Origin: Chloroflexota bacterium
GTDB taxonomy: Bacteria > Chloroflexota > Limnocylindria > QHBO01
NCBI GenBank assembly: GCA_040002615.1
Contig: JBDUEE010000024.1
Span: forward strand, 1-57,851
Length of the DNA: 57,851 bases
Reading direction: 5' to 3'
Of the stretch, positions 9,048 through 49,791 are shown piece by piece. The translations under genes were made by a program, and so were the position numbers. The notes under the pieces were generated by a model. It made no database searches, was not told the origin of the DNA, and was given only the letters and a program-made list of their open reading frames with translations. Positions within the stretch are counted from its first letter, which is position 1. The number at the start of each line of letters is the position of its first letter.

Positions 9048-9052
9048 CGAAG

Positions 9053-9691: not shown

Positions 9692-9720
9692 TCGTCCTTC
9701 GTGATAGCGGAAACTGTTGG

Positions 9721-10908: not shown

Positions 10909-11132
10909 AACACTCCGTGTGGCGGCTGAGAGGGTGCACGCGTCGGGGATTCGCCTGCGCGCGGCATTCGGGGTCGGGCTATCTATCCTACCGCCTGCTC
11001 CCCGGTCCGTGCTGAACGGCCGAGGTCATCGGGCCGAGCGAGTCAGCGCATGGCGGCTACAATCCGGCGGTGCCGGCGGTGCCGGTCGAATGCGTTCGCA
11101 GGAGGATCTGGTTGGCCGTCGCGGCAAAGGAC

Positions 11133-21727: not shown

Positions 21728-21737
21728 GGGACCGATG

Positions 21738-23791: not shown

Positions 23792-23795
23792 GCGC

Positions 23796-26517: not shown

Positions 26518-26553
26518 GACGATGCAGGTTAGCGGATGCGTCGGAGGAGCCGT

Positions 26554-30244: not shown

Positions 30245-30284
30245 CAGGCTGATGATACCGAGGGATGGATTGTCCGCTGCCGCG

Positions 30285-31829: not shown

Positions 31830-31891
31830 GCGGGGGAGTTTAGTGGCACGCGGCACGGGGCTCGCAGCACCGAGCCCACGGGCAGGGCAAA

Positions 31892-33238
31892 ATGCTCGCC
31901 ATGCATTCGGGACAGTCGCGTGAGCCGCGCGTCGCGATCGTTGGACTTGGCTACGTCGGCGCGGTGACTGCCGCCTGCCTGGCTGACCTGGGCAGATCCA
32001 TCGTCGGCGTGGACGTCGACGCCCTCAAGGCGGAGGCGGTGGCGGCGGGCCGCTCCCCCATCGCCGAGCCGGGCCTGGCCGCGCTCGTGGCGGCCGGCGT
32101 CACGGCGGGGCGAATCCGTGTGGCGTCCATCGCCGAAGGCGTGGAGGCTTCCGACGTGGTCATGATCGCGGTCGGCACGCCATCGGCTCCCTCCGGGGCA
32201 CTCGACCTGACCGCGGTGCTGCGTGTGGCCGAGGAGATCGGCGCTGCGCTGCCGCGTGACGAGCAGTTCCGCACCGTGGTCATGCGCAGCACGGTGCTGC
32301 CGGGCACGACCGAGGACGAGGTGCGGCCTGTCCTCGAAGCCGCATCGGGGATGCGGGCGGGCGTCGACTTCGGCCTGGCGATGAATCCGGAGTTCCTGCG
32401 CGAGGGGTCGAGCATCGCCGACTTCCACGAAGCCTCCCGCACGATCATCGGCGCTAACGATGAGGCATCGGCCGAGCAGGTACGAGCGGCGTACGCGGGC
32501 CTCGCCGCTCCCTTCGAACTGGTACCCATCCGTACGGCGGAGATGGTGAAGTACACCGACAACGCGTTCCATGCCACGAAGATCGCCTTTGCCAACGAAG
32601 TCGCCTCGTTTGCGCGTGCCTTTGGCGTGGACGGACGCGAGGCGATGCGGCTGATGATGGCGGATGACCGGCTCAATATCTCGACCGCGTACCTTCGACC
32701 GGGCTTCGCGTTCGGTGGCTCCTGCCTGCCAAAAGACCTGCGCGCGATCACCGATCGAGCGCGCAAGGCCGATATCGACCTCCCGCTCCTCAACGCGGCG
32801 CTGGCCAGCAACGTGGCCCACTTCGAACGCGCTGTGCGACTGATCGAGGAAGCCGGCGGACGCAGGGTCGCATTGCTGGGCCTCTCATTCAAGTCATCCA
32901 CCGACGACCTGCGCGAGTCACCGGCCGTCGGGCTGGCCGAACGATTGCTGGGTCGCGGCTACCAGCTGGGCATCTATGACCCGGAGGTCCACCCGGACCG
33001 GATACGCGGCGCGAACAGGGCATTCATGGAGGTCCACCTCCCCCACATCGCCGGCCTCCTGTGCGGCAGCCTGGATGACGCACTGGCCGCGGCCGATACG
33101 GTCGTGGTCACTAAACGCTGGCCGGAACTCGATGCGCTGGCAGCACTCCTGGACGAGCGGCATCGGGTCGTTGATCTCGTCGGGCTCGAGGGCCTTGGCT
33201 CCGCACTCGCGAATCGGTACGCCGGCATCGGTTGGTGA
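31892..33238 (+). CDS. Nucleotide-sugar 6-dehydrogenase, AlgD-like (candidate GDP-mannose 6-dehydrogenase)
   Basis: 448 aa. Motifs VAIVGLGYVGAVTAACLADLG, AGRSPIAEPGL and PGFAFGGSCLPKDLRA. It resembles GDP-mannose dehydrogenases more closely than Ugd, but the substrate is not certain. Confidence 0.75.
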   Translation: MLAMHSGQSREPRVAIVGLGYVGAVTAACLADLGRSIVGVDVDALKAEAVAAGRSPIAEPGLAALVAAGVTAGRIRVASIAEGVEASDVVMIAVGTPSAPSGALDLTAVLRVAEEIGAALPRDEQFRTVVMRSTVLPGTTEDEVRPVLEAASGMRAGVDFGLAMNPEFLREGSSIADFHEASRTIIGANDEASAEQVRAAYAGLAAPFELVPIRTAEMVKYTDNAFHATKIAFANEVASFARAFGVDGREAMRLMMADDRLNISTAYLRPGFAFGGSCLPKDLRAITDRARKADIDLPLLNAALASNVAHFERAVRLIEEAGGRRVALLGLSFKSSTDDLRESPAVGLAERLLGRGYQLGIYDPEVHPDRIRGANRAFMEVHLPHIAGLLCGSLDDALAAADTVVVTKRWPELDALAALLDERHRVVDLVGLEGLGSALANRYAGIGW

Positions 33239-35403: not shown

Positions 35404-35740
35404 ATGCTCGCCATGCATCCGGGACAGTCGCGTGAGCCACGCATCGCGATCGTTGGACTCGACTACGTCGGCGCGGTGACCGCCGCCTGCCTGGCTGACC
35501 TGGGGAGGTCGATCATCGGCTGGCCAGCAATGCAGCCCACTTCCCTCATATCGCCGCCCCCTGTGCGGCAGCCTGGATGACGCATTGGCCGCAGCCGACA
35601 CGGTCGTCGTGACGAAACGCTGGCCGGAGCTCGATGCGCTGGCAGCACTCCTGGACGAGCGGCATCGGGTCGTCGACCTGGTCGGGCTCGACGGATTCCC
35701 GAGGCCGATGTCGAATCGGCACCTCGGGATTGGCTGGTGA
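35404..35740 (+). pseudogene. Remnant of a second AlgD-like dehydrogenase gene (internal deletion of about 1 kb, frameshift)
   Basis: 35371-35520 aligns with the promoter-proximal and 5' coding part of 31892..33238. About 35535-35740 aligns with its last roughly 200 nt, including the GTGA junction. The Rossmann GLGYVG has become GLDYVG. Reading from the ATG at 35404 stops at 35578-35580 after 58 codons because the 3' piece is out of frame. Confidence 0.85.
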
Positions 35741-37821
35741 CGCTGGCCGATAACATCCCCGCCGGATCCGCGGCCGGCGAGGAGTCCGCGTGGGATACCG
35801 CTGTCTCGACCGACTCTCCATCACACTTTCGACCCGACATCGAGGGGCTGCGAGCCGTCGCCATCCTTGCGGTGCTCGCATTTCACACACGGATACCCGG
35901 ATTCTCTGGCGGCTTCGTCGGTGTGGATGTCTTCTTTGTCATCTCAGGCTTCCTGATCACCGGGCTCCTGCTGCGCGAGATCAGGGCGAGCGGACGAATC
36001 GACCTAACCGTGTTCTATGCCCGCAGGGCCAGGCGGCTCCTGCCGGCCGCCCTGGTCGTGATCGCCGTCACCGTCGCTGTGTCTGCCGTGGTCCTCTCGC
36101 CGCTGCGCTTCCCGGCCGTATCCGGGGATGGGGCGGCAGCCGCGTTGTACGTTTCGAACTACCGCTACGCGCTCGTCGCGACCGACTACTTCGCCGCCGA
36201 CGCCCAACCGTCGCCGCTGCTGCACTTCTGGTCACTGGGCGTCGAGGAGCAGTTCTATCTGTTCTGGCCGATCCTGCTGCTGTCCCTCAGCCGTCTGCTC
36301 CCGATTCGGCGCTTCTGGCCAGCAATCGCCGTCATCGCACTGGCTTCCTTCGCCGCGTCGGTGCTGGTTACCAACATCGAGATGCCGTGGGCCTTCTATT
36401 CACTTCCCACTCGCGCGTGGCAGCTGTCACTTGGAGCGCTGGTCGCACTCGGGGTGCTCGCCCTCCCAAGCCACATGCCGCGATGGTTCGGGGGCGCCCT
36501 TGGCGCGCTCGGCTTGGCGATCATCGCCACCAGCGTGATCGCCATCAATCCCACGACCCCCTACCCCGGACTGGCAGCGCTGCTCCCTGCAATGGGAGCT
36601 GCGCTGTTCATCGTGGGCGGCGATCAGCCAGGTGCCCTGCCGGCCCGTTGGTTGGCCACTGGCCCGCCGCGCTGGGTTGGCCGCATCTCGTATTCGCTCT
36701 ATCTCTGGCACTGGCCGATTCTGATCCTGGGTCCGATCATCATCGGGCAGGGGGGCCTCCGGGTGCGCATTCCGCTCGCGCTCCTGTCGATCCTTGTCGC
36801 CGCACTGAGCACGCGGTTCATCGAGACGCCTTTCCGCGCACGAGTCTGGTCTCGCGCCAGCGGCCGCACCCTCGTGCTGGCCGCCTCATTCTCGGCGGCG
36901 ATCGCGGTCGCCTCGCTCGCCGCCGCGGCCGACTTCACCCGCGATGAGCACCAGACTCCGCTACCAACCCTGGGGCCCGTGACCTCCGTCAGGCCCCAGC
37001 TGCCCGAGCCGGTGCTGGCCGGTCCGCTGCCTGACGACCTGCAGCCGACGCTGCTTGACGCCCCCAACGATCGCGGTGCGCCGGGCCTGGAAGGCTGTCG
37101 GTCTGGGATAACCGAATCCACGTTGCGTGACTGCACATACGGCGACCCATCGGCGCCGACCGTGGTTGTGTTCGGCGACTCCCACGCCTCGATGTGGCTG
37201 CCAACGGTCAGGGCTCTCGCGGACGACGCGCCATGGCGGCTCGTGCCGCTCATCAAACCCGGCTGTTCGCCGGTCGACGTGACGATCTGGCGGCGCGAGC
37301 TGCAGCGAGCGTTCCGGGAGTGCGATGCCTGGCGCGGGCTTGCCCTGCAGCGCATCCGCGAGCTGCACCCGGCCATCGTTTTCGTCACCTCATCGCGCAA
37401 CTACCAGATCGCCGACGCCGCCGGCAACCTCATCGAATCGGACATATCGGAGCTGTGGCGCACCGGCCTGGTTGGAGTCCTTGACGAGCTGCGGCAGAGC
37501 AGCGATCGCGTCGTCCTCATCGGCGAAACGCCTCACTTTCGCGACGATCCGCTGGAGTGCCTCGCCGTCCAGGGCGTCGTTGAGGAGTGCGCCGAGCCAC
37601 GAGCCGCGCTCGTCAGCACCGCGTACCAGCGCCTGGAAGAAAGTGCCGCGCGGGCGGCCGGGGCCGACCTCGTCAAGCCGATTGATTGGCTCTGCCAGAA
37701 GAACACCTGCGCCCTGATACTGGACCACTACCTCGTCTATCGAAACCCTGGCCACCTGACCGCGACTATCACCACCGTGCTCGCACCACAGCTCAGATGG
37801 GCACTCGATCACGCGGGGTAG
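35737..37821 (+). CDS. O-acyltransferase, Acyl_transf_3 plus SGNH domain (OafA-like), copy 2
   Basis: 694 aa and collinear with copy 1. The same motifs are present (FRPDIEGLRAVAILAVLAFH, VVVFGDSHASMW). The two copies are clearly diverged at the protein level. Confidence 0.85.
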   Translation: MTLADNIPAGSAAGEESAWDTAVSTDSPSHFRPDIEGLRAVAILAVLAFHTRIPGFSGGFVGVDVFFVISGFLITGLLLREIRASGRIDLTVFYARRARRLLPAALVVIAVTVAVSAVVLSPLRFPAVSGDGAAAALYVSNYRYALVATDYFAADAQPSPLLHFWSLGVEEQFYLFWPILLLSLSRLLPIRRFWPAIAVIALASFAASVLVTNIEMPWAFYSLPTRAWQLSLGALVALGVLALPSHMPRWFGGALGALGLAIIATSVIAINPTTPYPGLAALLPAMGAALFIVGGDQPGALPARWLATGPPRWVGRISYSLYLWHWPILILGPIIIGQGGLRVRIPLALLSILVAALSTRFIETPFRARVWSRASGRTLVLAASFSAAIAVASLAAAADFTRDEHQTPLPTLGPVTSVRPQLPEPVLAGPLPDDLQPTLLDAPNDRGAPGLEGCRSGITESTLRDCTYGDPSAPTVVVFGDSHASMWLPTVRALADDAPWRLVPLIKPGCSPVDVTIWRRELQRAFRECDAWRGLALQRIRELHPAIVFVTSSRNYQIADAAGNLIESDISELWRTGLVGVLDELRQSSDRVVLIGETPHFRDDPLECLAVQGVVEECAEPRAALVSTAYQRLEESAARAAGADLVKPIDWLCQKNTCALILDHYLVYRNPGHLTATITTVLAPQLRWALDHAG

Positions 37822-39024: not shown

Positions 39025-39561
39025 ATGGCCGATGCGCGTCCTCCGATCGAGGTGATCGTCGAGATCCCGTCCGGCAGCCGCAACAAGTACGAGTACGACC
39101 ATGCCGGGCATCGGTTCGTGCTGGACCGAATCCTGTACAGCAGCGTCCACTATCCGTGCGACTACGGCTTTATCGAGGGCAGCCTGGCCGATGACGGCGA
39201 TCCGCTCGATGTGCTGGTGGTGATCAGCGAGCCTACCTTTCCGGGCTGCGTGGTGCGGGCCCGGCCGGTCGGCCTGCTCGACATGAAGGACGAGAAGGGG
39301 CACGACTACAAGGTGCTGGCCGTCGCTCACGACGACCCGCGCTGGGACGGGACCGGCGGACTGCAGGACCTGTCACCGCATCGGCTGGTCGAAATAGAGA
39401 ACTTCTTCAAGATCTACAAAGCGCTGGAGGGGCGCGAGACCGATGTCTCCGGCTGGCTGGGCGTCGGCGAGGCGTGGCGGATCATCGATGCGGCGATGGC
39501 TGCCGGCCACCGCGGAACAGACAGCGCGGGCGAAGCCGCCAACCCCGGAACCTGGCGCTAG
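39025..39561 (+). CDS. ppa: Inorganic pyrophosphatase (family I)
   Basis: ORF 38776..39561 with an ATG at 39025. Motifs VIVEIPSGSRNKYEYD, YPCDYGFI, DGDPLDVLV and DEKGHDYKVLAV. Confidence 0.9.
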   Translation: MADARPPIEVIVEIPSGSRNKYEYDHAGHRFVLDRILYSSVHYPCDYGFIEGSLADDGDPLDVLVVISEPTFPGCVVRARPVGLLDMKDEKGHDYKVLAVAHDDPRWDGTGGLQDLSPHRLVEIENFFKIYKALEGRETDVSGWLGVGEAWRIIDAAMAAGHRGTDSAGEAANPGTWR

Positions 39562-40616
39562 GGCCTCAGGCTCGGCACCACGTCGTCAGGGCCCAGCAGG
39601 CTGCCCTGCGGCAGGTCGTGGGCGGCCCGCCGACCGATCACGTCGTCCAGCCGCTGCGGCGAGATGCCACCCGCCGGTCGCATCGCATCGAGGTCGGCGG
39701 CAATGAGCTCGGCGCCCGCGGCGACCGCGCGGGTGACGACCAGCGAGCGGCGTGCGAGCTGCCGTGCTTCCGCCTCCGCGGCCGCCGCAGCCTTGTCGCC
39801 TCCGCCACGGGCGTCGGCTGCCTGGCGCACCGCGACGACCATGGCGCCGAACTCGCCCGGATCCAGGCTGGCCTGGTGATCCGGGCCTGGCAGCGCACGG
39901 TCCAGGGTGAGGTGCTTCTCGATGACCGCTGCCCCCAGCGCCGCGGCGGCCACCGCCACGCCGATGCCGAGCGTGTGGTCGCTGTACCCGACCGGCACGC
40001 CGTAGCGGGCGCGCATGGCCTCCATGGCGAGCAGGTTCGCGTCGGCCGGCGCCGCTGGGTAGGCGCTGGTGCATTGCAGCAGCACCAGCGCAGGATCGCC
40101 GTGCGTCCGCAGGTCTTCCACGCTCGCGTCGATCTCCGACCACGACGCCATGCCGGTGGATAGCAGCACGGGCCTGCCAAGCGCGGCAACGGCGCGCAGC
40201 AGCACCAGGTTGGTCAGGTCGCCCGAGCCGATCTTGAACGCCGGTATGCCGAGAGTGGCAAGCAGCTGCACCGAGGCGAGATCGAACGGGGTGGAGAAGA
40301 AGACGATACCCCTCGCTGTTGCCCGCGCCTCCAGGGCAGGCCACGCATCGGCCGGCAGCTCAAGCCGGCGCAGCATCTCGAGCTGGGAGCCTGCCGGCGC
40401 CCGTTCCCGCTGGTAGGCAGCCTGCGGCGCGTCCTCGAAAACTACCGCGTCGGCCGAGAATGTCTGGAACTTGACCGCGTCGGCGCCCGCGCCGGCCGCC
40501 GCGTCAACGAGATGCAGCGCGACCTCGACCGACCCGTTGTGGTTCACACCGCCCTCGGCGATGACGAAGGGCGGCTCGTCCTCCGCGATACGCCGCCCGG
40601 CGATGTCGAGAGCCAT
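39558..40616 (-). CDS. neuB: Nonulosonic acid synthase (NeuB/LegI/PseI family, with C-terminal SAF domain)
   Basis: ORF 39558..40775. The ATG at 40616 lies just after the neuC-like stop. Motif PFVIAEGGVNHNGSVEVALHLVDAAAGAGADAVKFQTF. The C-terminal SAF-like segment is RRSLVVTRAVAAGAELIAADL. Confidence 0.85.
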   Translation of the reverse strand: MALDIAGRRIAEDEPPFVIAEGGVNHNGSVEVALHLVDAAAGAGADAVKFQTFSADAVVFEDAPQAAYQRERAPAGSQLEMLRRLELPADAWPALEARATARGIVFFSTPFDLASVQLLATLGIPAFKIGSGDLTNLVLLRAVAALGRPVLLSTGMASWSEIDASVEDLRTHGDPALVLLQCTSAYPAAPADANLLAMEAMRARYGVPVGYSDHTLGIGVAVAAAALGAAVIEKHLTLDRALPGPDHQASLDPGEFGAMVVAVRQAADARGGGDKAAAAAEAEARQLARRSLVVTRAVAAGAELIAADLDAMRPAGGISPQRLDDVIGRRAAHDLPQGSLLGPDDVVPSLRP

Positions 40617-40626
40617 GCGAGACGGG

Positions 40627-41754
40627 CTATTCATCGGCCTTACGGAGGAGTCGATCGTCGATGGGCTGCGCCGCGATGACGGACGCAAGCCTGGGCGCGG
40701 CCTGCCCGTCACCGTACGGCGACGTGCCAGAAAGGGAGGCGCGGAATTCCGGCGAGATAGCGCGTGCGATCGCATGCTCTATCGCTCGTTGCTTCGGTGC
40801 GGCATCCACGACGTTATCGCCCTGGAGCCGTCCTTCCTGACGACTCCCGATGTTCACGGCTGGGACCCGGAGCAGCGGCGCTTCGATGATCCCGGCGGAC
40901 GAATTGCCAACCAGCGCCGCGGCCGTGGCGAGGAGCACAGCGAAGTCCGGCCTGGGCACCGACGCATATGCGGGGATCCCGGCCGACCGCAGCTGCTCGG
41001 CCATCGCTCGTCCGCCGGCGTCCGTGTTTGGCAGGATCGCGAGCCGGGGCCGGCCGATCGCCGCGGTTGCCGCCAGCGTCTCCCGCATGTCTGCCGCAGC
41101 GTCGCGTGACGCGCGCGTCTCCGGGTGCTGGAGGATCAGGAGGTGACCGCCTTCGACCGGCAAACCGTACCGTCGGAGCACGGCTGCGGCGGGACGAGAG
41201 CTGAGATCCTCGAGGTCGTCCAGTCCAGGCGAGCCGGCCATGTGAATCCGCCAATTCGCTTCGCCCAGGCGCCGCAGGCGGTCGGCAGCGGCCTCCGAGC
41301 CAGGAAAGTGCAGGTGTGCCGCGCGCGTGATCATGTCGCGCTGGCTGTCGTCGACCGCGCCCAATGTCCTGTCGCCACCCGCAAGGTGGGCGACTGCCAC
41401 CGGGAAATGGATCGCGGCGAGGACAGCACCCAGCTGCTCGCCACGATCCCCCAGGACAAGCAGCCAATCGGGACGCTCGCGCCGCACGACCGGGGCGATG
41501 CCCTCGATCGCCGCACCCACGGCCCTTGCCATGTCCTCCGGCCCATCGCCCGGGGGGATGGTCGGCACTTCGGCCGCGATCTCGAATCCGGCCGAACGCA
41601 CCTCCCGCGCCGTATCACCGAACCCCTCAGCGAGATGCATCGCCGTGACCAGGAGCCTTGGATGAAGGTCGGGGTGCTCCGTGACGGCCCGGAGTACCGG
41701 CAGCCACAGCCCAAAGTCCGCACGCGTGCCGGTGACGATCAGCAGCTGCCGCAC
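40627..41754 (-). CDS. neuC: UDP-sugar 2-epimerase (hydrolysing), NeuC/LegG family
   Basis: 375 aa. Motifs LIVTGTRADFGLWLPVL, LVLGDRGEQLGAVLAA, VAHLAGGDRTLGAVDDSQRDMITRAAHLHF. Confidence 0.85.
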   Translation of the reverse strand: MRQLLIVTGTRADFGLWLPVLRAVTEHPDLHPRLLVTAMHLAEGFGDTAREVRSAGFEIAAEVPTIPPGDGPEDMARAVGAAIEGIAPVVRRERPDWLLVLGDRGEQLGAVLAAIHFPVAVAHLAGGDRTLGAVDDSQRDMITRAAHLHFPGSEAAADRLRRLGEANWRIHMAGSPGLDDLEDLSSRPAAAVLRRYGLPVEGGHLLILQHPETRASRDAAADMRETLAATAAIGRPRLAILPNTDAGGRAMAEQLRSAGIPAYASVPRPDFAVLLATAAALVGNSSAGIIEAPLLRVPAVNIGSRQEGRLQGDNVVDAAPKQRAIEHAIARAISPEFRASLSGTSPYGDGQAAPRLASVIAAQPIDDRLLRKADE

Positions 41755-41857
41755 TCAGGTCTCCGATCCGGGATGGTCGTCCACGATCACGCCGCTATCC
41801 TAGGTCTGCCCAGGCAACGGCATCCTTCCGTCATGCAGCGGGGCCCGACACGGGTGA

Positions 41858-42553
41858 ATGATGGAGTCCTACCGACGTGGCGCGCGCGTGGTCATCCTTG
41901 GTGCCGGCGGCCATGCTCGCGAAGTCCTCGATGTCTATGACGCCTGCAACGAGGCCGGATGGGGACCGCTCGAGGTGCTTGGCTTCCTCGACGATGACCG
42001 GCAACCTGGTGACAGGGTCAGCTCGCTCACGATTCTCGGCGGCATCGATTGGCTCGGCGACCACACCGATGTCCTTGCAATCTGCGGCATCGGCGACCCC
42101 GTGGTGCGTCGAAGAGTCGTGAAGCGCGCCGGCGAGCAAGGAGCCAGCTTTCACACGGTCGTCCATCCAACCGCACTGCTCACGAGCCGGGTGGAGCTCG
42201 GCCCGGGTTGCCTCATCACCGCTGGCTGCATCCTGACCAACGAAATCCAGCTGGGATCGCATGTACACCTCAACCTCGCCACGACGGTGAGCCACGATTG
42301 CCGCATCGGGGATTACGCGACCCTCGCACCGGGCGTGCACCTGGCAGGGAATGTCACGGTTGATCCGGGCGTCGACATCGGCGTTGGAGCGTCGGTGATC
42401 CAGCAACGGCGCATCGGAGCGGGCGCGGTCATCGGCGCCGGGGCCGTCGTGACAGACGACATCCCGCCCGACGCGGTGGCCGTCGGCGTCCCGGCCCGCG
42501 TGGTGAAAACGCGAAGCCCGGGTTGGGGAGACGTGGATCGAACAGGCGGCTAA
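41858..42553 (+). CDS. neuD: Hexapeptide-repeat N-acetyltransferase, NeuD/PglD/LegH family
   Basis: 231 aa. N-terminal Rossmann-like VVILGAGGHAREVLDVY. C-terminal left-handed beta-helix hexapeptide repeats (IGDYATLAPGVHLAGNVTVDPGVDIGVGASV). Confidence 0.8.
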   Translation: MMESYRRGARVVILGAGGHAREVLDVYDACNEAGWGPLEVLGFLDDDRQPGDRVSSLTILGGIDWLGDHTDVLAICGIGDPVVRRRVVKRAGEQGASFHTVVHPTALLTSRVELGPGCLITAGCILTNEIQLGSHVHLNLATTVSHDCRIGDYATLAPGVHLAGNVTVDPGVDIGVGASVIQQRRIGAGAVIGAGAVVTDDIPPDAVAVGVPARVVKTRSPGWGDVDRTGG

Positions 42554-43578
42554 CCGATGGTCGGCAGCTGGTCTGGGCGGAGCCACCCAGCGCGATCGAG
42601 AAGCTCGCGCAGCTCCGGCCGCGACAGGAGCGGCTCCTCACCACGGCCACCGTCAATCGCTCCACCGCGTCGATCGGCATGGGGTGGCCCGTGGACGACA
42701 AACATGCCGTCCACGTCCTCGGCCAGCCGCGCCTCGTCGTCGGTCAGCAGCATCTCGTGTCGCTTCTCTCCTGCCCTGGCGCCGATGGTCAGCACCTCGA
42801 TCTCGTCGGTGCGGAAACCGTACGTGGGCGCATACGCCTCGACCAGGACCTCCACCAGGTCACCCACACGCACGCGCGGCATCTTCAGGATGAAGACCTC
42901 GCCGCCCTGCATGCGGCCCATGGCATCGAAGCACAGCCGAACCGCGTCGTCGATCGGCATCATGTAGCGGCTCATCTCCGGGTCCGTCAGCGTCACCGGA
43001 CCGCCGGCCGCCACCTGGTTGCGGATGAGCGGCACCAGCGATCCGCGCGAGCCGATCACATTGCCGAATCGCACCGACGCGAAGCGGGTCGGGGCGGCGC
43101 CCTTGTACTTCTCCGCCGCGGACAGCAGCCGCTCCGCCAGCAGCTTGGTGGCACCCATCACGTTGGTCGGGTCGACGGCCTTGTCGGTGCTGATGCCCAG
43201 CACCCGCTCGACGCCGGCATCGAGCGCCGCCTCGACCACGTTCTGCGCGCCGCGCACATTGGTCTCGGTGGCCTCGAATGGGTTGAACTCGCAGGCCGGG
43301 ACGTGCTTCATGGCCGCAACGTGGAAGACGAGCTCGACCCCCGACATGGCCCGGGTCATCCGTTCGCGGCTGCGCACGTCGCCGATCAGCATCCGCAGCT
43401 CGGGAGCGTCGCGATGACGCTGCGCCAGGTCGAATTGCTTCGAATCGTCGCGGGACACAACGCGCAGGGCTCGTGGTCCCAGCGGCAGCAGGCTGGCGAC
43501 GATATGCGACCCGATCGAGCCCGTGCCGCCGGTCACCAGCACGGTGCGATCGCTGAACAGGGCGCGATGGTCGGTCAT
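42550..43578 (-). CDS. NAD(P)-dependent nucleotide-HexNAc 4,6-dehydratase (PseB/LegB/CapD-like, Polysacc_synt_2)
   Basis: 342 aa. Motifs VLVTGGTGSIGSHIV, HVAAMKHVPACEFNPFEATETNVRGAQNV and STDKAVDPTNVMGATK. Confidence 0.85.
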   Translation of the reverse strand: MTDHRALFSDRTVLVTGGTGSIGSHIVASLLPLGPRALRVVSRDDSKQFDLAQRHRDAPELRMLIGDVRSRERMTRAMSGVELVFHVAAMKHVPACEFNPFEATETNVRGAQNVVEAALDAGVERVLGISTDKAVDPTNVMGATKLLAERLLSAAEKYKGAAPTRFASVRFGNVIGSRGSLVPLIRNQVAAGGPVTLTDPEMSRYMMPIDDAVRLCFDAMGRMQGGEVFILKMPRVRVGDLVEVLVEAYAPTYGFRTDEIEVLTIGARAGEKRHEMLLTDDEARLAEDVDGMFVVHGPPHADRRGGAIDGGRGEEPLLSRPELRELLDRAGWLRPDQLPTIG

Positions 43579-44723
43579 GCCACCCCCTGGACGCGGGCGC
43601 TATCCACCAATGCATCGCACACGCGATCGATCTCGTCGTCGGTCAGGCGCGACGAGAACGGAAGGGCAAGTGTCGTCGAAGCAACCCGCTCGGTGACCGG
43701 GAAGTCGCCCGGGCGGTGACCGAAGCGCTCGCGATAGAACGGCTGCAGATGGATCGGGCTGAAATAGGGACGGCTCGCCACGCCGGCCGCCTCCAGCTGG
43801 CCGATGAGCCGATCCCGGTCGATCCTGGCATCGAGGCGGACGACGTACAGGAACCAGTCCACCTCGGCCTGCGGCAGTGGACGGGGCAGCCGGAGCCAAT
43901 CGCGGCCGGCCAGGCGCTGACCGTAGGCGGCGACCACGCGATCGCGGCCGGCCTTGAGCTCCGCCCGACGGCGCAGCTGAGCGACGCCAAGGGCCGCGCT
44001 CATCTCGTCGAGCCGGTAGTTGAAGCCAAGCTGGACGTGCCGCAGCCAGGTACCGTCATCGTCGCGACCCTGGTTTCGCATGCTGCGCATGCCGCGCGCC
44101 ATGCCGTCATCCGAGGTGACGACCATGCCGCCCTCGCCCGTCGTGATCTGTTTGTTGGGATAGAAGGCAAAGACCGAAATATCCCCCCACGAACCAACCG
44201 GCCGGCCGGCCACGCTCGAACCGAGTGCCTCGCATGCGTCCTCGACGACCCGCTGCTGCCTCGAGGCGGCCAGCGATGCGAGCTGGTCGAGCTGGCTCGG
44301 GTGGCCGAACACGTCGACCGGCAGGAACGCCCGGCTCCGGGTCGTCAGCGCCGCCTCCGCCCTCTCTGGATCGAGGCCAAGCGTCTCCTCCTCGATATCG
44401 GCAAAGACCGGGGTGGCACCCTCGAACAGGACGCAGTTGGCACTGGCCACGAAACTGAAGGGGGTGGTGACCACCTCGTCACCGGGACCGATGCCCAGCG
44501 CGCGGATGGCCAGGTGCAGTCCGGCGGTGCCGCTGCTGACAGCGATCCCGTACCGGTGACCGGCAAGCGCGGCGATCCCCTGCTCGAACTCCTCGACGAA
44601 GGGACCCATCGAAAGGACGTCGCTGTGCAGCACCTGGAGAACCAGCTCCTCTTCGAGCTCGCCGACATTCGGCTGGGCCAGGGGAATCTGCCGCCGGGTC
44701 GCGGGTCGTGCCAGGTCGGTCAT
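43575..44723 (-). CDS. DegT/DnrJ/EryC1-family PLP-dependent sugar aminotransferase (LegC/PseC/PglE-like)
   Basis: 382 aa. Motifs AVSSGTAGLHLAIRALGIGPGDEV and FAFYPNKQITTGEGGMVV (PLP lysine region). Confidence 0.85.
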   Translation of the reverse strand: MTDLARPATRRQIPLAQPNVGELEEELVLQVLHSDVLSMGPFVEEFEQGIAALAGHRYGIAVSSGTAGLHLAIRALGIGPGDEVVTTPFSFVASANCVLFEGATPVFADIEEETLGLDPERAEAALTTRSRAFLPVDVFGHPSQLDQLASLAASRQQRVVEDACEALGSSVAGRPVGSWGDISVFAFYPNKQITTGEGGMVVTSDDGMARGMRSMRNQGRDDDGTWLRHVQLGFNYRLDEMSAALGVAQLRRRAELKAGRDRVVAAYGQRLAGRDWLRLPRPLPQAEVDWFLYVVRLDARIDRDRLIGQLEAAGVASRPYFSPIHLQPFYRERFGHRPGDFPVTERVASTTLALPFSSRLTDDEIDRVCDALVDSARVQGVA

Positions 44724-44735
44724 GCGGTCGCCATT

Positions 44736-46190
44736 CTAGGCATGGCCCGCTCGCCTCACGCCCGCCAGCTCCAGGACCAGGCGCGCGGCACGCTCAGTCG
44801 AGCGGCCGTCCAGCGAACCCAGGCGCTCGGGCAGCAGCGCCCGCGCGCGCGCCACGGCCTCCAGGTGGATAGCCGGGTCGAGCAACGAACGCGCGGCCTT
44901 TACGGCAGACGCCTCGTCGCCGGCCGCGATGGCCAGACCATCGGCCGCAAAGTCGACTGGTGACGTGCCTCGCGGCGCGACCGTGATCGACGGCACTCCG
45001 GCGATGGCCGCCTCGTACACGCTGTTCGACCAGCCGGTGACCATCGCCCATGCGCCGGTCAGCTCGCGGTGCAGCCCGTCCCCAGCCGCAACGCGTACCT
45101 CAACACCGGCTGGCGCGTCGACGTCCATGCGGAACGTCCGCGGGTCGGCCGGGTGCCGGACGATGACCAGCTCCGCCGGCGTGGCAGCGCCCGCAACGGC
45201 CATGGCCCTGCGGAGGCAGAGCGCCAGCAGCTGCGAGGTCATGGAGCCCGTCACGTATTGCGCCGCGTACACGACCCGCCGCCTGCGATCCGGCGACGCG
45301 CTGGTTGCGGAGGCCGCAAACAACGGGTCGAAACGGGGAGCCCCAATCTCAACGATGCGCTCCGCGCCAACCCCCGCCTCACCAAGCACGGCCGCGGCGC
45401 GGCTGCCGTACACCGCCATCCGGTCGTAGCCTGCGCCCTGGATGGCCCACGCGTCGGTGGCCTCGGCGTGCGGCAGGTCGAGGCTCGGAACATCGAAGCG
45501 GTGCGCCACCGCCGGCAGCAGCCGCGCCCAGGTGCCGATCTCGTCGAAGGCCACCAGCAGGCCCGGTCGCCAGCGGCGCACCAGCCCGCCGAGCGCAACC
45601 GCGCCGAGCGCGATGCGCCCCAGCTCAAGGCGGGCGACGGTCATCGTCTCTGCAGCACGCTGCTGCCCCACAACCTCACGCCAGCTGCGGCCCGCATTGC
45701 CCGCGCGTGCCAGGACGCGGGCCTGGAATGCCGCCAGCGCGGGGATGCCCCGCGGGTCAACCAGGCGCACCAGCCGCGGAGCCACCATTCCGTGCGGAGG
45801 TGCGCCAGCCGCTGCACGCCCAGTACGGACCATCGCCAGCGGCACCGACTCCCGCCGGAGCCGGTCGCGTAGCCGCTCGATCACCGGGTAGTGGGTCGGG
45901 TCGCGCACCAGGACCACGATCGGTGCCGGGCCGGCGATCGGCACCTGCCAGCTGCCCAGGCTGACCGCGGCGGCCGCTGCCAGCCGCGCAACTGCAACCG
46001 CTGCCTGCGGCGATCCGGCTCGCCGGGCGATGGCAGGCGCATCATCCCGCAGAGCGAAGAAAAGCTGTTGCTCCAGCGCGCCGGCGAGATCAATGCCATC
46101 GATGGAGAGCAGCGCCGGCTCGTCGTGCGCCGTGACCTCAACGAGCGCGTGTGCTTCGCTGCGCGCGATCTCCGGCGTTGCTGGGCTCAC
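44736..46190 (-). CDS. Hypothetical protein, possible GT-B-fold enzyme (candidate nonulosonic-acid transferase or PseG-like hydrolase)
   Basis: 484 aa. It is translationally coupled to neuA upstream by a 4-nt overlap and lies 13 nt upstream of the aminotransferase. I recognised no family signature. The C-terminal half has ELVIVRHPADP and TGWSNSVYEAAIAGVPSITV, reminiscent of GT-B nucleotide-binding loops. Confidence 0.5.
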   Translation of the reverse strand: MSPATPEIARSEAHALVEVTAHDEPALLSIDGIDLAGALEQQLFFALRDDAPAIARRAGSPQAAVAVARLAAAAAVSLGSWQVPIAGPAPIVVLVRDPTHYPVIERLRDRLRRESVPLAMVRTGRAAAGAPPHGMVAPRLVRLVDPRGIPALAAFQARVLARAGNAGRSWREVVGQQRAAETMTVARLELGRIALGAVALGGLVRRWRPGLLVAFDEIGTWARLLPAVAHRFDVPSLDLPHAEATDAWAIQGAGYDRMAVYGSRAAAVLGEAGVGAERIVEIGAPRFDPLFAASATSASPDRRRRVVYAAQYVTGSMTSQLLALCLRRAMAVAGAATPAELVIVRHPADPRTFRMDVDAPAGVEVRVAAGDGLHRELTGAWAMVTGWSNSVYEAAIAGVPSITVAPRGTSPVDFAADGLAIAAGDEASAVKAARSLLDPAIHLEAVARARALLPERLGSLDGRSTERAARLVLELAGVRRAGHA

Positions 46191-46864
46191 CGCCGGCGGA
46201 CGCGTGACAGTCGGCGAGCCTCGGCCAGGTCGGCGGCAGTGTCGACATCCAGTCCGGACGCCTCGTCCAGCACGAGCCCGGCCGGCCGATCGTCGAGCAG
46301 CCGGCCCTCGTCGAGCAGATCACGGCGGGTCACGTAGATGCCGCCGGTCAGGCGCACAGCCGGCGGCGACGCCTGCCGCCGCGCGTCGGTGCCGCGGTCG
46401 ACCAAACGGACGCGGCCATTGGCCAGCATGCCGATCACACGGATCGGCATGCCCAGCCGGCAGACGCTGACTGCGCTGCGCACCAACGGATCGCCGAGCA
46501 GCGCGATCGCCGCGTCGATCTGCTCGGCGGTGCGCAGCGGCGCAGTCGGCTGCAGGGTGACCACCAGCTCGAACCGCTCCCCATGTGCCTCCGCCTGCTG
46601 CACCGCATGCTGAATCGCCGGCACGGTCGGTGAATCATCCTGCGCCAGCTCGCCCGGACGGGACAGCACCTCGACCCCGGCTCGCCGGGCGACGCGGGCA
46701 ACCGCCGCGTCGTTGGTGGAGACCACGACGCGATCGACGCTGCCGGCCGCCAGACCGGCGCGGATGGTGTGCACGATCATCGGGCTGCCGCCAACCAGCA
46801 GCAGATGCTTGCCGGGCAGGCCCCGCGAACCGGCCCGGGCCGGAATGACCGCCAGGGTTGACAC
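46187..46864 (-). CDS. neuA: CMP-nonulosonic acid synthetase (acylneuraminate cytidylyltransferase family, NeuA/LegF)
   Basis: 225 aa with a GTG start. The signature LAVIPARAGSRGLPGKHL is at the N-terminus. Confidence 0.85.
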   Translation of the reverse strand: MSTLAVIPARAGSRGLPGKHLLLVGGSPMIVHTIRAGLAAGSVDRVVVSTNDAAVARVARRAGVEVLSRPGELAQDDSPTVPAIQHAVQQAEAHGERFELVVTLQPTAPLRTAEQIDAAIALLGDPLVRSAVSVCRLGMPIRVIGMLANGRVRLVDRGTDARRQASPPAVRLTGGIYVTRRDLLDEGRLLDDRPAGLVLDEASGLDVDTAADLAEARRLSRVRRR

Positions 46865-46904: not shown

Positions 46905-48377
46905 GTGAGCCCGAACATGGCCCGCAGTCCCGGAGCCGCCACCTGGCCCGCCGGCCTGGCGGTGGCGCTGACGCTGGCGGCCGTCGTCGGTGCGCAGCTG
47001 GCTCCTGCGCTCTTCTTCGCCGCTGGCGTGCTCCTGCTGGGCATGCTCGCCTATCTTTCCTGGCACTGGCCGCGTGCCATGCTCGTCCTGCTCATCCTGG
47101 CTCCCCTGCTCGATCGGTTCCTGATCAGCCTGGGAATTCCGGCTGGCCTGCGGCCGGCGACGACGTATGCCAGCGAGGCGCTGCTCCTTGTGGTTGGGGT
47201 GGCGGTGACGGTCGCTGCCGCGCGCTCGCGGCAGTTGATCCCGGCCTTGCGACATCCGGTCGTCGCCGGCCTGTGCGCGTTCGCGGTGATCGGGGCCGCG
47301 TCGGCCGTCCTGAACGGCGTGCCGCCGGCCGTGGCGGTGGCAGGCCTCGTCTTCACCCTCGACGCGGCGGTGCTCTTTGTGCTGCCTCGCCTCGTGCCCT
47401 TCGGCAACCGCGAGGCCGCCTGGGCAGTGATGGCGTTCGTGGGCGCGGCGGCAGCGGCCGCGCTGCTGGCCATGGGCCAGGTTCTCATCCATCCCAATTT
47501 CCTGGGCCTGGAGACCTTCGCCGGCCGCTTCAGCGAGGGTCAACGGGTGGCGTCGCTGCTGGTCAGCCCGAACCTGCTGGGCCTTCTGCTGGCGATGGCG
47601 CTGCCGTTCTCGCTGCTCGCCTGCCTGGAGACGGCCGGTCGCAGGCGATGGGTGGCGGGAGGCGTGGCGCTCCTGCTGTCGCTGGCCCTGCTCTACACCT
47701 TCTCACGTGGCGCCTGGCTGGCGCTTGTGCTGGCAACGGTGGTCGTCAGTGTCGTTGTCGAGCGCCGCGCGATCGCCCTGTTGGCCCTGATCGGCCTGCT
47801 GACCTTCGCCATCGCGCTGGTACTACCGCGTCACCTTGCTGACCCTCAACGAGGTGAAGAGCGGTTCGACCTGATCGCTGCCACGCTGGGGCGTCTCGAG
47901 GCACTCGGCGAGGGTGACCTGCGCGTGCAGTTCGTGGAGAACGCCACGCCGATCATCCTCGACCACCCGCTGATCGGCGCCGGGCCCGGCCGCTATGGCG
48001 GCGCGGTCGCGCGCACCTTCGGCTCACCGCTCTACCAGCAGTACACCGCCGGAACCGTTCCGGTCGGGCGAACGGTCGACAACTTCTGGCTGCATCTGTT
48101 GGTTGAGACTGGGGCCTTCGGCGTGCTGGCCTTCGCCGGAGCGATCGCGATCGGCGTAGCCGATGCGCTGCGAGCTGCTTCGAAATCGGCAGGATTGCGG
48201 CGCGCGTTGCTGGCGGGCATTGCCGCGGCGATGACCGTGGTGGCCATCGACTCGATCACGGAGATGGTGCTGGAGGGCAACAGCACAGCCTTCGCCGCAT
48301 GGTTCCTGCTGGGAATGGCGACGAGCCTGGTAGGGACTGCCGCAGATCGGGCGCCGGACGCGCCCGACGCTCAGTAG
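46905..48377 (+). CDS. O-antigen ligase / Wzy_C-domain polytopic membrane protein
   Basis: 490 aa with about 11 hydrophobic segments. It has the LLYTFSRGAWLALVLATVVV motif followed by a large loop characteristic of the Wzy_C/O-antigen ligase domain. Confidence 0.7.
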   Translation: MSPNMARSPGAATWPAGLAVALTLAAVVGAQLAPALFFAAGVLLLGMLAYLSWHWPRAMLVLLILAPLLDRFLISLGIPAGLRPATTYASEALLLVVGVAVTVAAARSRQLIPALRHPVVAGLCAFAVIGAASAVLNGVPPAVAVAGLVFTLDAAVLFVLPRLVPFGNREAAWAVMAFVGAAAAAALLAMGQVLIHPNFLGLETFAGRFSEGQRVASLLVSPNLLGLLLAMALPFSLLACLETAGRRRWVAGGVALLLSLALLYTFSRGAWLALVLATVVVSVVVERRAIALLALIGLLTFAIALVLPRHLADPQRGEERFDLIAATLGRLEALGEGDLRVQFVENATPIILDHPLIGAGPGRYGGAVARTFGSPLYQQYTAGTVPVGRTVDNFWLHLLVETGAFGVLAFAGAIAIGVADALRAASKSAGLRRALLAGIAAAMTVVAIDSITEMVLEGNSTAFAAWFLLGMATSLVGTAADRAPDAPDAQ

Positions 48378-48426
48378 GCTCCTCGCCCGCTGATGACCGC
48401 GCCGATGGTGCGCCGCAGGATGGCGA

Positions 48427-49791
48427 TCAGAACGCCTCGAGGTAGCGCTCGACCTCCCATGCCGTGACCTGCATGCGGTACTCGTCCCACTCTTCTGTCT
48501 TGGCCTCAACGAAGCGCTCGAACACGTGCTCTCCGAGCGCCTCGGCGATGACCTTGTCGCCCTGGAGCTCGTCGAGCGCCTCGCGCAGAGTGCCCGGCAG
48601 CTGACGGATCTTCCGACTGGCGAGCTTGGCGGCGTCGAAATGGTAGAGGTTCTCTTCGACGGGCTCGGGCGGGGTCAGCTTGCGCTCGATCCCATCGAGG
48701 CCCGAGGCGAGCATGCAGGCGAAGGCAAGATACGGGTTGGTGGAGGGGTCCGGGCAGCGCAGCTCGATGCGGGTCGAATTGAGCTGCCCATGGCTGATCT
48801 GAGGAATCCGGACCAGCGCTGAGCGGTTGATTCGTGCCCAGCCGATGTACACCGGCGCCTCGTAGCCCGGCACCAGCCGCTTGTAGCTGTTCACCAGCGG
48901 CGCCAGCACGGCGATCATGCCGCGCGCGTGCTCCAGCGTTCCGGCGATGTAGCTGCGTGCGGTGTCGGAGAGCCCGTAGTCGTCCTTCGCATCGGCGAAT
49001 GCGTTCTTGCCCTTCTTGATGTCCCACAGGCTCTGGTGGGTGTGCATCCCCGATCCGTTGATGCCGAAGAACGGCTTGGGCATGAAGGTGGCGTACAGCC
49101 CCTGCCGCGCCGCCACTGCCTTGAGCGTGGTCTTGAACGTGACGGCGTTGTCGGCCGTGCGCAGCGCGTCGGCGTACTCGAAATCGATCTCGTGCTGGCC
49201 GGTGGCCACCTCGTGGTGCGCCGTCTCGACCTTGATACCGAATGCCTCGAGGTCGTTCATCATCTCCTTGCGGACCTCCGTGCCAAGGTCCTCGGACAGG
49301 TCGAAGTAGCCGGCCGCATCGTGTGGAAGAGTCTCGACATCAGTTTCGCTGCGACGCAGGAGGAAGAACTCGAGCTCAGGTCCGGTGTTCAGGACATAGC
49401 CAGCCTTCTTCGCCTTATCCAATTGGCGGCGCAGGACCCAGCGCGGGTCCCCGGGGAAGGGATCGCCATTCGGCGTGAAGACGTCGCAGATGACCCGCGC
49501 CGCGCCGGTTGCGCGTTCACGTCCCTCGGCATCGTGGCCCGGTTCCCAGGGGATCGGCGCAAACGTGGCGAGGTCTGGCACCAGGAACATGTCGGACTCG
49601 GCGATGCGTGCGAAGCCCTCGATGCTGCTGCCGTCGAACCACTTTCCATGCTCCACCGCCTCCTCCAGCTGGTGCATCGGCACCTGGACCGATTTCACCT
49701 GCCCGACGATGTCGGTGAACTGCAGACTCACGAACCGCAGGTTGCGCTCCTCGGCCAGCTTGAGGGCGGCAGACAGCTCCTTGGATGGCAT
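48427..49791 (-). CDS. glnA: Glutamine synthetase, type I
   Basis: 454 aa. Motifs FDGSSIEGFARI, KPFFGINGSGMHTHQSLW and NSYKRLVPGYEAP. A GGAAGGAG RBS lies upstream of the ATG. Confidence 0.9.
   Translation of the reverse strand: MPSKELSAALKLAEERNLRFVSLQFTDIVGQVKSVQVPMHQLEEAVEHGKWFDGSSIEGFARIAESDMFLVPDLATFAPIPWEPGHDAEGRERATGAARVICDVFTPNGDPFPGDPRWVLRRQLDKAKKAGYVLNTGPELEFFLLRRSETDVETLPHDAAGYFDLSEDLGTEVRKEMMNDLEAFGIKVETAHHEVATGQHEIDFEYADALRTADNAVTFKTTLKAVAARQGLYATFMPKPFFGINGSGMHTHQSLWDIKKGKNAFADAKDDYGLSDTARSYIAGTLEHARGMIAVLAPLVNSYKRLVPGYEAPVYIGWARINRSALVRIPQISHGQLNSTRIELRCPDPSTNPYLAFACMLASGLDGIERKLTPPEPVEENLYHFDAAKLASRKIRQLPGTLREALDELQGDKVIAEALGEHVFERFVEAKTEEWDEYRMQVTAWEVERYLEAF

Follow-up and report, generated by a model that had tools for sequence, protein, structure and literature searches.

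A Chloroflexota bacterium (assembly GCA_040002615.1, contig JBDUEE010000024.1) is represented here by a stretch of 57,851 nt, hereafter the window, in which seven adjoining genes at positions 39558-46864 likely make up a complete module for producing a cytidine monophosphate (CMP)-activated 5,7-diacetamido-3,5,7,9-tetradeoxy-nonulosonic acid of the legionaminic acid (Leg) type, and probably also for installing it. Reading frames were chosen by their strong third-position GC bias, the G+C content of the window being 65-71%, and 46 open reading frames (ORFs) were scanned with Pfam and NCBIfam profile models. A preliminary description of this DNA had listed six genes in the span, namely those for a NeuB-like synthase with an SAF domain, a NeuC-like enzyme, a NeuD/PglD-like acetyltransferase, a 4,6-dehydratase, a DegT-type aminotransferase and a NeuA-like enzyme. 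All six were recovered at full length with Pfam/NCBIfam matches, but the ORF map shows seven genes: the list lacked a conserved gene at 44736-46190 (minus strand) and overlooked the plus-strand orientation of the acetyltransferase gene. The genes of the nonulosonic acid (NulO) module are as follows (NDP, nucleoside diphosphate; GlcNAc, N-acetylglucosamine; PLP, pyridoxal phosphate; GT-B, glycosyltransferase fold B).

39558-40634, minus strand, 358 aa: NeuB-like nonulosonic acid synthase with C-terminal SAF domain (LegI candidate)
40627-41754, minus strand, 375 aa: NeuC-like hydrolysing NDP-sugar 2-epimerase (LegG candidate)
41858-42553, plus strand, 231 aa: NeuD/PglB/VioB-family left-handed beta-helix acetyltransferase (LegH/PglD-equivalent 4-N-acetyltransferase)
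42550-43578, minus strand, 342 aa: soluble Polysacc_synt_2 NDP-GlcNAc 4,6-dehydratase
43575-44723, minus strand, 382 aa: DegT/DnrJ/EryC1-family PLP aminotransferase (C4 amination)
44736-46190, minus strand, 484 aa: GT-B-fold protein of unassigned family, here called GTB484; candidate CMP-nonulosonate (Leg) glycosyltransferase
46187-46864, minus strand, 225 aa: NeuA-like CMP-nonulosonate synthetase/cytidylyltransferase (LegF candidate)

Integrity and conservation of the module

The six enzymes match their families with E-values of 1e-20 to 1e-119, which excludes chance matches, and the NeuC-like and NeuD-like proteins score above curated model cut-offs. Neighbouring genes on the same strand overlap by 4-8 nt: the GTG start of GTB484 overlaps the NeuA-like stop (GTGA), the aminotransferase stop overlaps the dehydratase start (ATGA), and the ATG of the NeuB-like gene overlaps the NeuC-like stop by 8 nt. 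The acetyltransferase gene runs against the other six: it converges on the dehydratase gene and diverges from the NeuC-like gene, a 103-bp spacer separating it from the latter; judging by gene orientation, the cluster would comprise three transcription units rather than one operon. A minus-strand ORF at the same site (41831-42586) was considered as the true gene and rejected, family matches being present only in the plus-strand frame. Each protein can be aligned almost end to end with orthologues of related loci, with no frameshifts, and contigs assembled independently from soil metagenomes match the region with no indels and run across the two junctions of the inverted acetyltransferase gene (run X1 spans 39567-42492 and run X4 41460-42854). 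No gene is disrupted, and the assembly can be relied on.

The organism is a soil-dwelling member of the Chloroflexota group Candidatus Limnocylindria. Its nearest protein relatives are from soil metagenomes and metagenome-assembled genomes (MAGs) named Candidatus Limnocylindria or Chloroflexota, and the region itself was found in soil and permafrost metagenome runs; a scan of genome contigs for GTB484 gave the lineage as well as loci from three MAGs. In every one of the eight related loci with enough flanking sequence (L001, L003, L004, L005, L006, L007, L008 and L009) the six biosynthetic genes adjoin one another, although their order varies, and start/stop overlaps occur in the window and in most relatives. 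In L007, from a Gemmatimonadales MAG, the operon reads NeuA-NeuD-NeuC-aminotransferase-dehydratase-NeuB, and the commoner order in Limnocylindria is NeuA-NeuD-GT-B-NeuC-aminotransferase-dehydratase-NeuB. The window and L004 share a different arrangement, NeuA-GT-B-aminotransferase-dehydratase, an inverted NeuD, and NeuC-NeuB. The inverted NeuD of the window shares 63% identity with that of L004 (13649-14317) but only about 36% with the one in the commoner order (e.g., L001, 3033-3680), which points to replacement of the gene rather than a simple flip. Pyrophosphatase and Wzy_C genes, described below, keep constant positions in both Limnocylindria gene orders.

The sugar and the route to it

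The families of the enzymes are established, and their substrates and stereochemistry are predictions. In the proposed route, uridine diphosphate (UDP)-GlcNAc would be the starting compound; downstream of the dehydratase, the DegT aminotransferase would place an amine on C4 and the PglD/NeuD-like enzyme would N-acetylate it, giving a UDP-N,N'-diacetylbacillosamine (UDP-diNAcBac)-type sugar. The NeuC-like enzyme would then strip UDP and epimerise C2 to yield a 2,4-diacetamido-2,4,6-trideoxy-mannose-type hexose, which the NeuB-like synthase would join with phosphoenolpyruvate. The NeuA-like enzyme would convert the product to its CMP-sugar, a reaction that the adjacent pyrophosphatase may pull, and the co-operonic TagF-like GT-B protein, with its DExG and HP motifs, would move the sugar onto the glycan of the neighbouring Wzx/Wzy locus. 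That the product belongs to the 5,7-diamino-tetradeoxy class of NulOs is highly probable. A UDP rather than a guanosine diphosphate (GDP) carrier is predicted with good confidence, and true Leg (D-glycero-D-galacto) stereochemistry is probable, Leg5Ac7Ac being the likeliest product.

No PseG-like gene (Glyco_tran_28_C/PseG model) and no PseH-like gene of the GNAT acetyltransferase type was found among the 46 ORFs scanned. A hydrolysing 2-epimerase in the absence of PseG is an indicator of Leg over pseudaminic acid (Pse) (PMC5378307), and by that criterion the NeuC-like 2-epimerase and the beta-helix acetyltransferase point to Leg rather than Pse. The NeuC-like protein scores 333 bits against TIGR03568 (cut-off 236) and 64 bits against the non-hydrolysing WecB model, and its best solved relative is the Acinetobacter baumannii GDP/UDP-diNAcBac 2-epimerase 5xvs (185 bits; human GNE, 161). 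The acetyltransferase scores 212 bits against TIGR03570 (cut-off 161) and contains PglD_N and Hexapep domains; its best solved relatives (VioB, 109 bits; WeeI, 101; PerB, 93; PglB-Ng, 85; PglD, 58) all N-acetylate 4-amino-4,6-dideoxy sugars. The NeuA-like protein matches PF02348 (73 bits) and falls below the cut-off of the PseF model (109 bits; cut-off 206), and its best solved relative is the Neisseria meningitidis CMP-N-acetylneuraminic acid synthetase 1eyr (106 bits). As to the carrier, the markers of a GDP-linked route are missing: the dehydratase reaches only 74 bits with the LegB model TIGR04180 (cut-off 475), being about 30% identical to the LegB type over the N-terminus only, and no PtmE/NTP_transferase-type gene was found among the ORFs scanned. 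A UDP-linked route is therefore predicted.

The synthase matches PF03102 (297 bits) and the SAF family PF08666, and it scores 399.3 bits with the NeuB_NnaB model TIGR03569 versus 297.9 bits with the PseI model, whose cut-off of 340 it misses. Three reference synthases score as follows.

Solved PseI (8h2c): NeuB_NnaB 288 bits, PseI 514 bits
N. meningitidis NeuB (NmNeuB): NeuB_NnaB 399.5 bits, PseI 233 bits
Bacillus subtilis SpsE (Leg): NeuB_NnaB 301 bits, PseI 257 bits

The difference between the two scores (NeuB_NnaB minus PseI) is thus +101 for the window synthase, +166 for NmNeuB, +44 for SpsE and -226 for the true PseI. Motifs for metal binding and catalysis are kept (AEGGVNH, SDHT and EKHLT), and the protein has D139 at the position of the catalytic E134 of NmNeuB and S190 at the N184 position, states that it shares with the solved protein 6ncs. 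Aspartate at the E134 site is known from archaeal and eukaryotic synthases (PMC8208679). At the N184 site, Pse synthases have Ser and Leg synthases Tyr, and at the Gly/Phe site the window synthase has Gly, the state of N-acetylneuraminic acid (Neu5Ac) and Leg synthases (PMC7371886); this signature is mixed here and was not used as a classifier.

The preliminary description had proposed that the NeuB-like and NeuC-like proteins be placed phylogenetically, and had held that clustering of the synthase with Neu5Ac or Pse synthases would speak against a Leg-type product. Neighbour-joining trees with 300 bootstraps were built with homologues from annotated plasmids, most of them labelled by gene context rather than biochemistry: Leg-context denotes neighbouring LegB/LegC, or DegT plus NeuC; Pse-context, neighbours including pseC/G/H or pseF; and Neu5Ac-context, NeuA-NeuB-NeuC only, in one case with a polysialyltransferase. 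The window synthase formed a clade with Leg-context synthases in 73% of replicates and fell within the Neu5Ac-context and Pse-context clades, each supported at 100%, in 0%. Its identity is 47-55% with Leg-context references, 39-45% with three plasmid references of Pse context (34% with the solved PseI 8h2c) and 32-35% with those of Neu5Ac context; a tree with the four solved structures alone (PseI 8h2c, SpsE 1vli, 6ncs and NmNeuB), all of them 34-37% identical to the window protein, did not place it. The Neu5Ac-context NeuC clade (support 100%) excludes the NeuC-like protein, which is 35-42% identical to Leg-context and 28-31% to Neu5Ac-context NeuC. Clustering with Neu5Ac or Pse synthases was therefore not what the trees returned, and the Leg-type assignment stands; the earlier claim that dehydratase, aminotransferase, PglD-like, NeuC, NeuB and NeuA enzymes together constitute a Leg-type route is likewise supported by the synthase tree, the placement of NeuC and the lack of PseG or PseH among the scanned ORFs.

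Legionella pneumophila NeuC, NeuB and NeuA reportedly act on UDP-diNAcBac (Glaze et al. 2008, cited in PMC6137143). The SpsM/C/D/G/E/F enzymes of B. subtilis carry out the same six chemical steps from UDP-GlcNAc, and SpsM resembles the window dehydratase as a soluble Polysacc_synt_2-type enzyme with Met in place of the Tyr of short-chain dehydrogenases/reductases (M146/K150) (PMC7439481). Like the ORFs scanned in the window, these UDP-linked routes include no PtmE- or LegB-type genes. In B. subtilis, however, the hydrolase/2-epimerase is SpsG and the dehydratase gene lies at a second locus, whereas the window has a clear NeuC homologue and a PglD/NeuD-type acetyltransferase; SpsE shares only about 35% identity with the window synthase and falls outside its group. 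The GDP-linked Leg system of Campylobacter jejuni and Tannerella forsythia (LegB, LegC, LegH/PglD, LegG, LegI, LegF and PtmE; PMC5378307) has the same order of steps and, as in the window, a NeuC-like LegG, a NeuB-like LegI and a PglD-like acetyltransferase, and the window synthase groups with synthases whose neighbours the PGAP annotation names LegB and LegC. That system includes LegB and PtmE, whereas the window dehydratase is not of the LegB type and a PtmE-like guanylyltransferase was not found among the scanned ORFs. A Haladaptatus plasmid cluster has the same dehydratase subtype, DegT, NeuC, a NeuB (47% identical) and a NeuD-family acetyltransferase, and a related cluster is present on a Halorussus plasmid. 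The Pse pathway (PseB, C, H, G, I and F, as on the Bacillus plasmid of locus L018) shares with the window a PseB/Pen-like dehydratase family, DegT, a NeuB-family synthase, a CMP-transferase and the product mass class, but it uses PseG and a GNAT PseH where the window has a NeuC-like 2-epimerase and a beta-helix acetyltransferase. The window pathway is a Leg-type module of standard kind, of the UDP-linked form; its architecture is nearest to that of the haloarchaeal clusters, and its function to the L. pneumophila and B. subtilis routes.

Several findings tell against a Leg product. The same enzymes could build another isomer if the dehydratase inverted C5 or the amine were axial, the product then being a non-Leg 5,7-diacetamido-tetradeoxy-nonulosonate (8-epi-Leg-type, fusaminic acid (Fus)-type or other). 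The dehydratase (PF02719, 322 bits) has as its best solved relatives Pen from the Pse route of Bacillus thuringiensis (6bwc, 284 bits), FlaA1/PseB (231) and CapE (220), which belong to inverting or L-sugar routes, followed by PglF (147); PseB is its top NCBIfam match (304 bits), and it is 44% identical to a Bacillus Pen-like protein. The aminotransferase (PF01041, 380 bits) has PseC as its top NCBIfam match (296 bits, versus 273 for the LegC family), both scores lying below cut-off and neither being diagnostic, and its best solved relative is a GDP-perosamine synthase (260 bits), with ArnB at 221, PseC at 134 and PglE at 122. Ser at the N184-equivalent site is the Pse state of the published signature (PMC7371886). 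The 73% support for the synthase grouping is moderate and comes from neighbour-joining with references mostly labelled by context, and a clade of the window NeuC with Leg-context NeuC was recovered in only 7% of replicates, the NeuC tree being unresolved at depth.

The catalytic motif of the dehydratase is intact (T131-D132-K133 ... M141-x-x-x-K145), with Met141 where PseB has Tyr141. Inverting CapE shares the Met/MxxxK motif, and retaining PglF also has Met; because MxxxK is thus common to SpsM and to an inverting enzyme, the motif does not fix C5 retention by the window dehydratase. SpsM, with Met/Lys at M146/K150, was complemented by pglF but not by pseB, so that it is a retaining enzyme, and it feeds the Leg pathway (PMC7439481); the window dehydratase resembles it, rather than PseB, at position 141. 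Further evidence against another isomer is that the PseB (cut-off 408) and PseC scores are all below the equivalog cut-offs, that the synthase groups with Leg-context enzymes, and that the NeuC-containing Leg-type cluster of the haloarchaeon Haladaptatus encodes a dehydratase of this subtype, 49% identical and with a matching STDK..MGATK motif, such haloarchaea being makers of Leg (PMC6137143). Another isomer is accordingly unlikely, although the closeness of the dehydratase to PseB/Pen-type enzymes makes Leg stereochemistry probable only. The preliminary description had cautioned that the exact stereoisomer cannot be read from the sequence, and this holds, the dehydratase being nearest to PseB/Pen/CapE and the aminotransferase marginally nearer to PseC than to LegC.

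A pathway to Pse itself is contradicted by the sub-threshold PseI score and exclusion from the Pse clade, together with the sub-threshold PseB score and the Tyr141-to-Met change. For Neu5Ac, the synthase and NeuC lie outside the respective clade, and the dehydratase and aminotransferase are integral to the conserved module. Gene content alone would also fit two pathways in one cluster, with NeuC, NeuB and NeuA making CMP-Neu5Ac and the dehydratase, aminotransferase and acetyltransferase making UDP-diNAcBac or a related 4-acetamido-4,6-dideoxy-N-acetylhexosamine, for example as a reducing-end sugar for a PglC-like initiating transferase. NeuD-family genes do occur in Neu5Ac clusters, the TIGR03569 score of the synthase equals that of N. 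meningitidis NeuB (399.3 vs. 399.5 bits), and a small PglC-like Bac_transf gene adjoins the operon in L001, L004 and L006. We nevertheless consider this division of labour very improbable, given that the synthase never joins the Neu5Ac-context clade (0% of replicates, and 32-35% identity against 47-55% to Leg-context enzymes), that the NeuC-like protein also stands outside it, and that in the commoner gene order neuC and neuB enclose the dehydratase and aminotransferase genes, with stops and starts that overlap. All six genes moreover occur together in eight of eight loci from two phyla, and none of the Neu5Ac-context clusters examined has dehydratase or aminotransferase genes.

The GT-B protein GTB484

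GTB484 has no family match in Pfam or NCBIfam, including the PseG model. A word-indexed search returned 92 homologues at E <= 1e-3, the few taxon-named ones being Limnocylindrales or Chloroflexota, and an exhaustive profile search returned 105 representatives from metagenomes at E <= 1e-30, about half of them full-length, and 5619 at E <= 1e-3; the representatives traced to a lineage are Chloroflexota. An AlphaFold2 model built with 50 homologues (mean pLDDT confidence 90.9, pTM score 0.90) has two Rossmann-like domains. In a Foldseek search, the top 50 listed of 200 solved-structure matches (E <= 1e-3) are all GT-B proteins, with E-values down to about 5e-9, led by the TagF-like TarL 8va1 and UDP-GlcNAc 2-epimerases; comparison of the family profile with PDB sequences gave nothing significant (best E 0.17). 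Eight of ten distant relatives tested, most of them 600-670 aa long, pass the cut-off of the Glyphos_transf (TagB/F) family, and some also exceed the Capsule_synth or Epimerase_2 cut-off. Families of the Glyphos_transf and Capsule_synth type use cytidine diphosphate (CDP)- or CMP-activated donors.

Among 50 homologues, the invariant or nearly invariant residues are D216-E217-x-G219 (D216-E217-I-G219 in the window) and P240-H241 in the N-domain, and H346-P347, T385-G-W-S-N-S and E393 in the C-domain; in the model, DEIG follows an N-domain strand and H346-P347 a C-domain strand. These motifs recall the D/E-D/E-G and HP motifs of bacterial sialyltransferases and TagB-like proteins (PMC5420450; PMC7439481), the first of them, DExG, being one residue longer than the strict D/E-D/E-G. 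TagB-like proteins are genetically implicated in Pse and Leg transfer in T. forsythia (PMC5420450), where the transferases Tanf_01245 and TFUB4_00887 are, like GTB484, of the GT-B/TagB-like class, have acidic-Gly and HP motifs and lie beside NulO genes. GTB484 differs from TagB-like proteins in that it misses every Pfam model and only its distant relatives reach Glyphos_transf.

On balance, the evidence leans towards GTB484 being a NulO transferase. The main alternative gives it another role, as a TagF-like alditol-phosphate transferase, as an ordinary NDP-sugar glycosyltransferase for the repeat unit, or as a catalytically different epimerase- or hydrolase-like enzyme, with the NulO transferase encoded elsewhere; we regard this as a possibility of some weight, though short of probable. 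The leading fold matches, to TarL (which uses CDP-ribitol) and to UDP-GlcNAc 2-epimerases, would suit such a role, as would the departure of DExG from the strict motif. The Gemmatimonadales locus L007 and locus L009 also hold the six-gene module without GTB484 inside it, L007 having only a weak relative of the gene, after Wzx. In B. subtilis, SpsB, a TagB-like neighbour of the Leg cluster, is dispensable for transferring Leg (PMC7439481). These observations count against a NulO transferase, as does the basis of the assignment itself, which is predicted from fold, motifs and position only. Against the alternative, the ORFs scanned in the window yielded no gene for CDP-glycerol or CDP-ribitol synthesis, and CMP-NulO is the sole CMP/CDP-activated donor that the locus is seen to encode. 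The start of GTB484 overlaps the NeuA stop; each of the six Chloroflexota loci that extend far enough along the cluster has the gene within the NulO operon or adjacent to it; the other genes already account for the six biosynthetic steps; and in T. forsythia the addition of Pse and Leg requires TagB-like enzymes (PMC5420450).

Two other candidates were rejected. GTB484 is not a substitute for PseG, the six-gene module existing without it in L007 and L009, and the ORF at 27774-29672 is not a second GT-B copy but encodes a polytopic membrane protein with no similarity to GTB484.

Separately, L003 carries two GTB484 paralogues (69-1559 and 7948-9630; profile scores 646 and 485 bits), one in the NulO operon and one after Wzx, where the window has one. 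TagF-like GT-B genes recur next to NulO clusters in unrelated bacteria: a gene for a DUF6716 putative glycosyltransferase adjoins pseF on a Tritonibacter plasmid (L019, 10075-11232), and a CDP-glycerol glycerophosphotransferase-family gene adjoins the Pse cluster of a Bacillus toyonensis plasmid (L018, 1-876).

The surrounding polysaccharide locus and its significance

The NulO cluster is the final block of a surface-polysaccharide locus of about 40 kb, the main features of which are listed below (APS, adenosine 5'-phosphosulfate).

7560-9047: WbaP-like initiating transferase, large
9053-9922, minus strand: APS kinase (PF01583, 201 bits)
9721-11025, minus strand: ATP sulfurylase (PF01747, 329 bits, plus PUA_2)
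11016-12119, plus strand: DHH/DHHA1 phosphatase (DHH and DHHA1 domains)
19905-20894, 20813-21778, 22883-23911, 23796-24701, 25747-26553 and 29318-30340, minus strand: six sulfotransferase-like ORFs (Sulfotransfer_1/Sulfotransfer_3 matches; that at 23796-24701 read from its translation)
24770-25777, plus strand: GT2 glycosyltransferase
30285-32024, minus strand: Wzx flippase (Polysacc_synt_3, 278 bits)
33175-35322 and 35581-37821, plus strand: two tandem AT3-SGNH acyltransferase paralogues
39025-39561, plus strand: inorganic pyrophosphatase, convergent with the NeuB-like gene (PF00719, 177 bits)
46905-48377, plus strand: Wzy_C/O-antigen-ligase-like polytopic membrane protein, divergent from NeuA (PF04932, 62 bits)

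By their families, the APS kinase, ATP sulfurylase and DHH/DHHA1 phosphatase are predicted to supply 3'-phosphoadenosine 5'-phosphosulfate (PAPS) and to remove 3'-phosphoadenosine 5'-phosphate (pAp). The sulfotransferase ORFs are interleaved with GT4 and GT2 glycosyltransferase genes, and the locus also holds PMT_2 and GtrA membrane proteins, two UDP-sugar dehydrogenases and a further GT4 gene. The preliminary description placed the NulO genes within a sulfation island; the island is real, with PAPS genes, six sulfotransferase-like ORFs and Wzx/Wzy-like proteins, and to call the cluster embedded in it is fair, although it lies at the edge. The AT3-SGNH pair, of which L006 has one copy at the same position, is predicted to O-acylate the exported glycan, possibly on the nonulosonic acid. 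The pyrophosphatase gene is convergent beside NeuB in each Limnocylindria locus examined for it (L001, L003, L004, L006 and L008); its product may be coupled to the pyrophosphate-releasing CMP activation and equally may be a housekeeping ppa. The Wzy_C protein keeps its position in L001, L004, L006 and L008, and beyond it lie glnA, a PucR regulator and housekeeping genes, with an LCP protein and a WecA/TagO-like GT4 at the window end.

Sulfotransferase genes flank the operon in L003 (12311-14175) and L004 (20356-21318), and a polysaccharide pyruvyl transferase gene occupies the corresponding place in L001 (14235-15335) and L008 (13351-14517). This suggests that strains exchange one kind of anionic decoration for another while keeping the NulO operon, and that there is selection for a strongly anionic surface. 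In the N-glycan of Halorubrum sp. PV6, sulfated hexuronic acid and terminal Leg occur on one glycan (PMC6137143), a direct precedent for the combination of sulfate and Leg, which is therefore not new. That glycan is an archaeal N-linked S-layer pentasaccharide, whereas the product in the window is presumed to be a Wzx/Wzy polysaccharide; the haloarchaeal sugar is 5-N-formylated and its clusters carry formyltransferases, whereas six sulfotransferase-like ORFs and a separate set of PAPS genes are present in the window. From co-location, the chances that NulO and sulfate are on the same polymer are about even.

Some further features of the window may be recorded. The sulfotransferase-like ORF at 23796-24701 (minus strand, 301 aa) was read from its translation, which has an N-terminal GAPKCGTTSL motif of the PAPS-binding type, and it overlaps an upstream extension of the ORF at 22883-23911. 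The polytopic membrane protein encoded at 27774-29672 (minus strand), downstream of the Wzx and sulfotransferase genes, has no Pfam match and may be a second Wzy-like polymerase. In L001 (129-800), L004 (7209-7799) and L006 (6539-7123) the interval from Wzy to glnA contains the small PglC-like Bac_transf gene; the window has only a 50-bp gap there (48377-48427) and has instead the large WbaP-like gene at 7560-9047. A cupredoxin-like ORF at 1565-2242 (plus strand; 225 aa in its longest reading, the start probably lying later) seems to have no connection with the glycan locus; it carries a copper-site-like motif, CEIHPAMHG, and its C-terminal tail is hydrophobic.

A literature search on legionaminic acid in Chloroflexi returned nothing relevant; neither NulO genes nor NulO chemistry were found reported there for Chloroflexota. 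As a pathway this is already well known; the novelty lies in the lineage of the host, in a gene order conserved next to glnA and ppa, in how densely the sulfation genes are packed and in a candidate family of transferases. In Candidatus Limnocylindria, uncultured Chloroflexota of soil and permafrost for which no surface-glycan chemistry was found in the literature searched, a Leg-type operon is documented as syntenic across the lineage. A candidate is nominated for the scarce class of Leg transferases, and the operon adjoins a sulfation locus that ranks among the denser ones observed in bacteria. We tentatively suggest, as a wider possibility, that GTB484 might found an uncharacterised TagF-like GT-B family that moves Leg-type sugars from CMP, and that the product of the locus might be an envelope polysaccharide of the abundant soil Limnocylindria that is O-acetylated, carries much sulfate and bears Leg, making it a bacterial equivalent of sulfated sialoglycans. 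The finding raises no new mechanistic question; if confirmed chemically, it would bear on the chemistry of soil aggregates and extracellular polymeric substances, on phage receptors and on cation binding.

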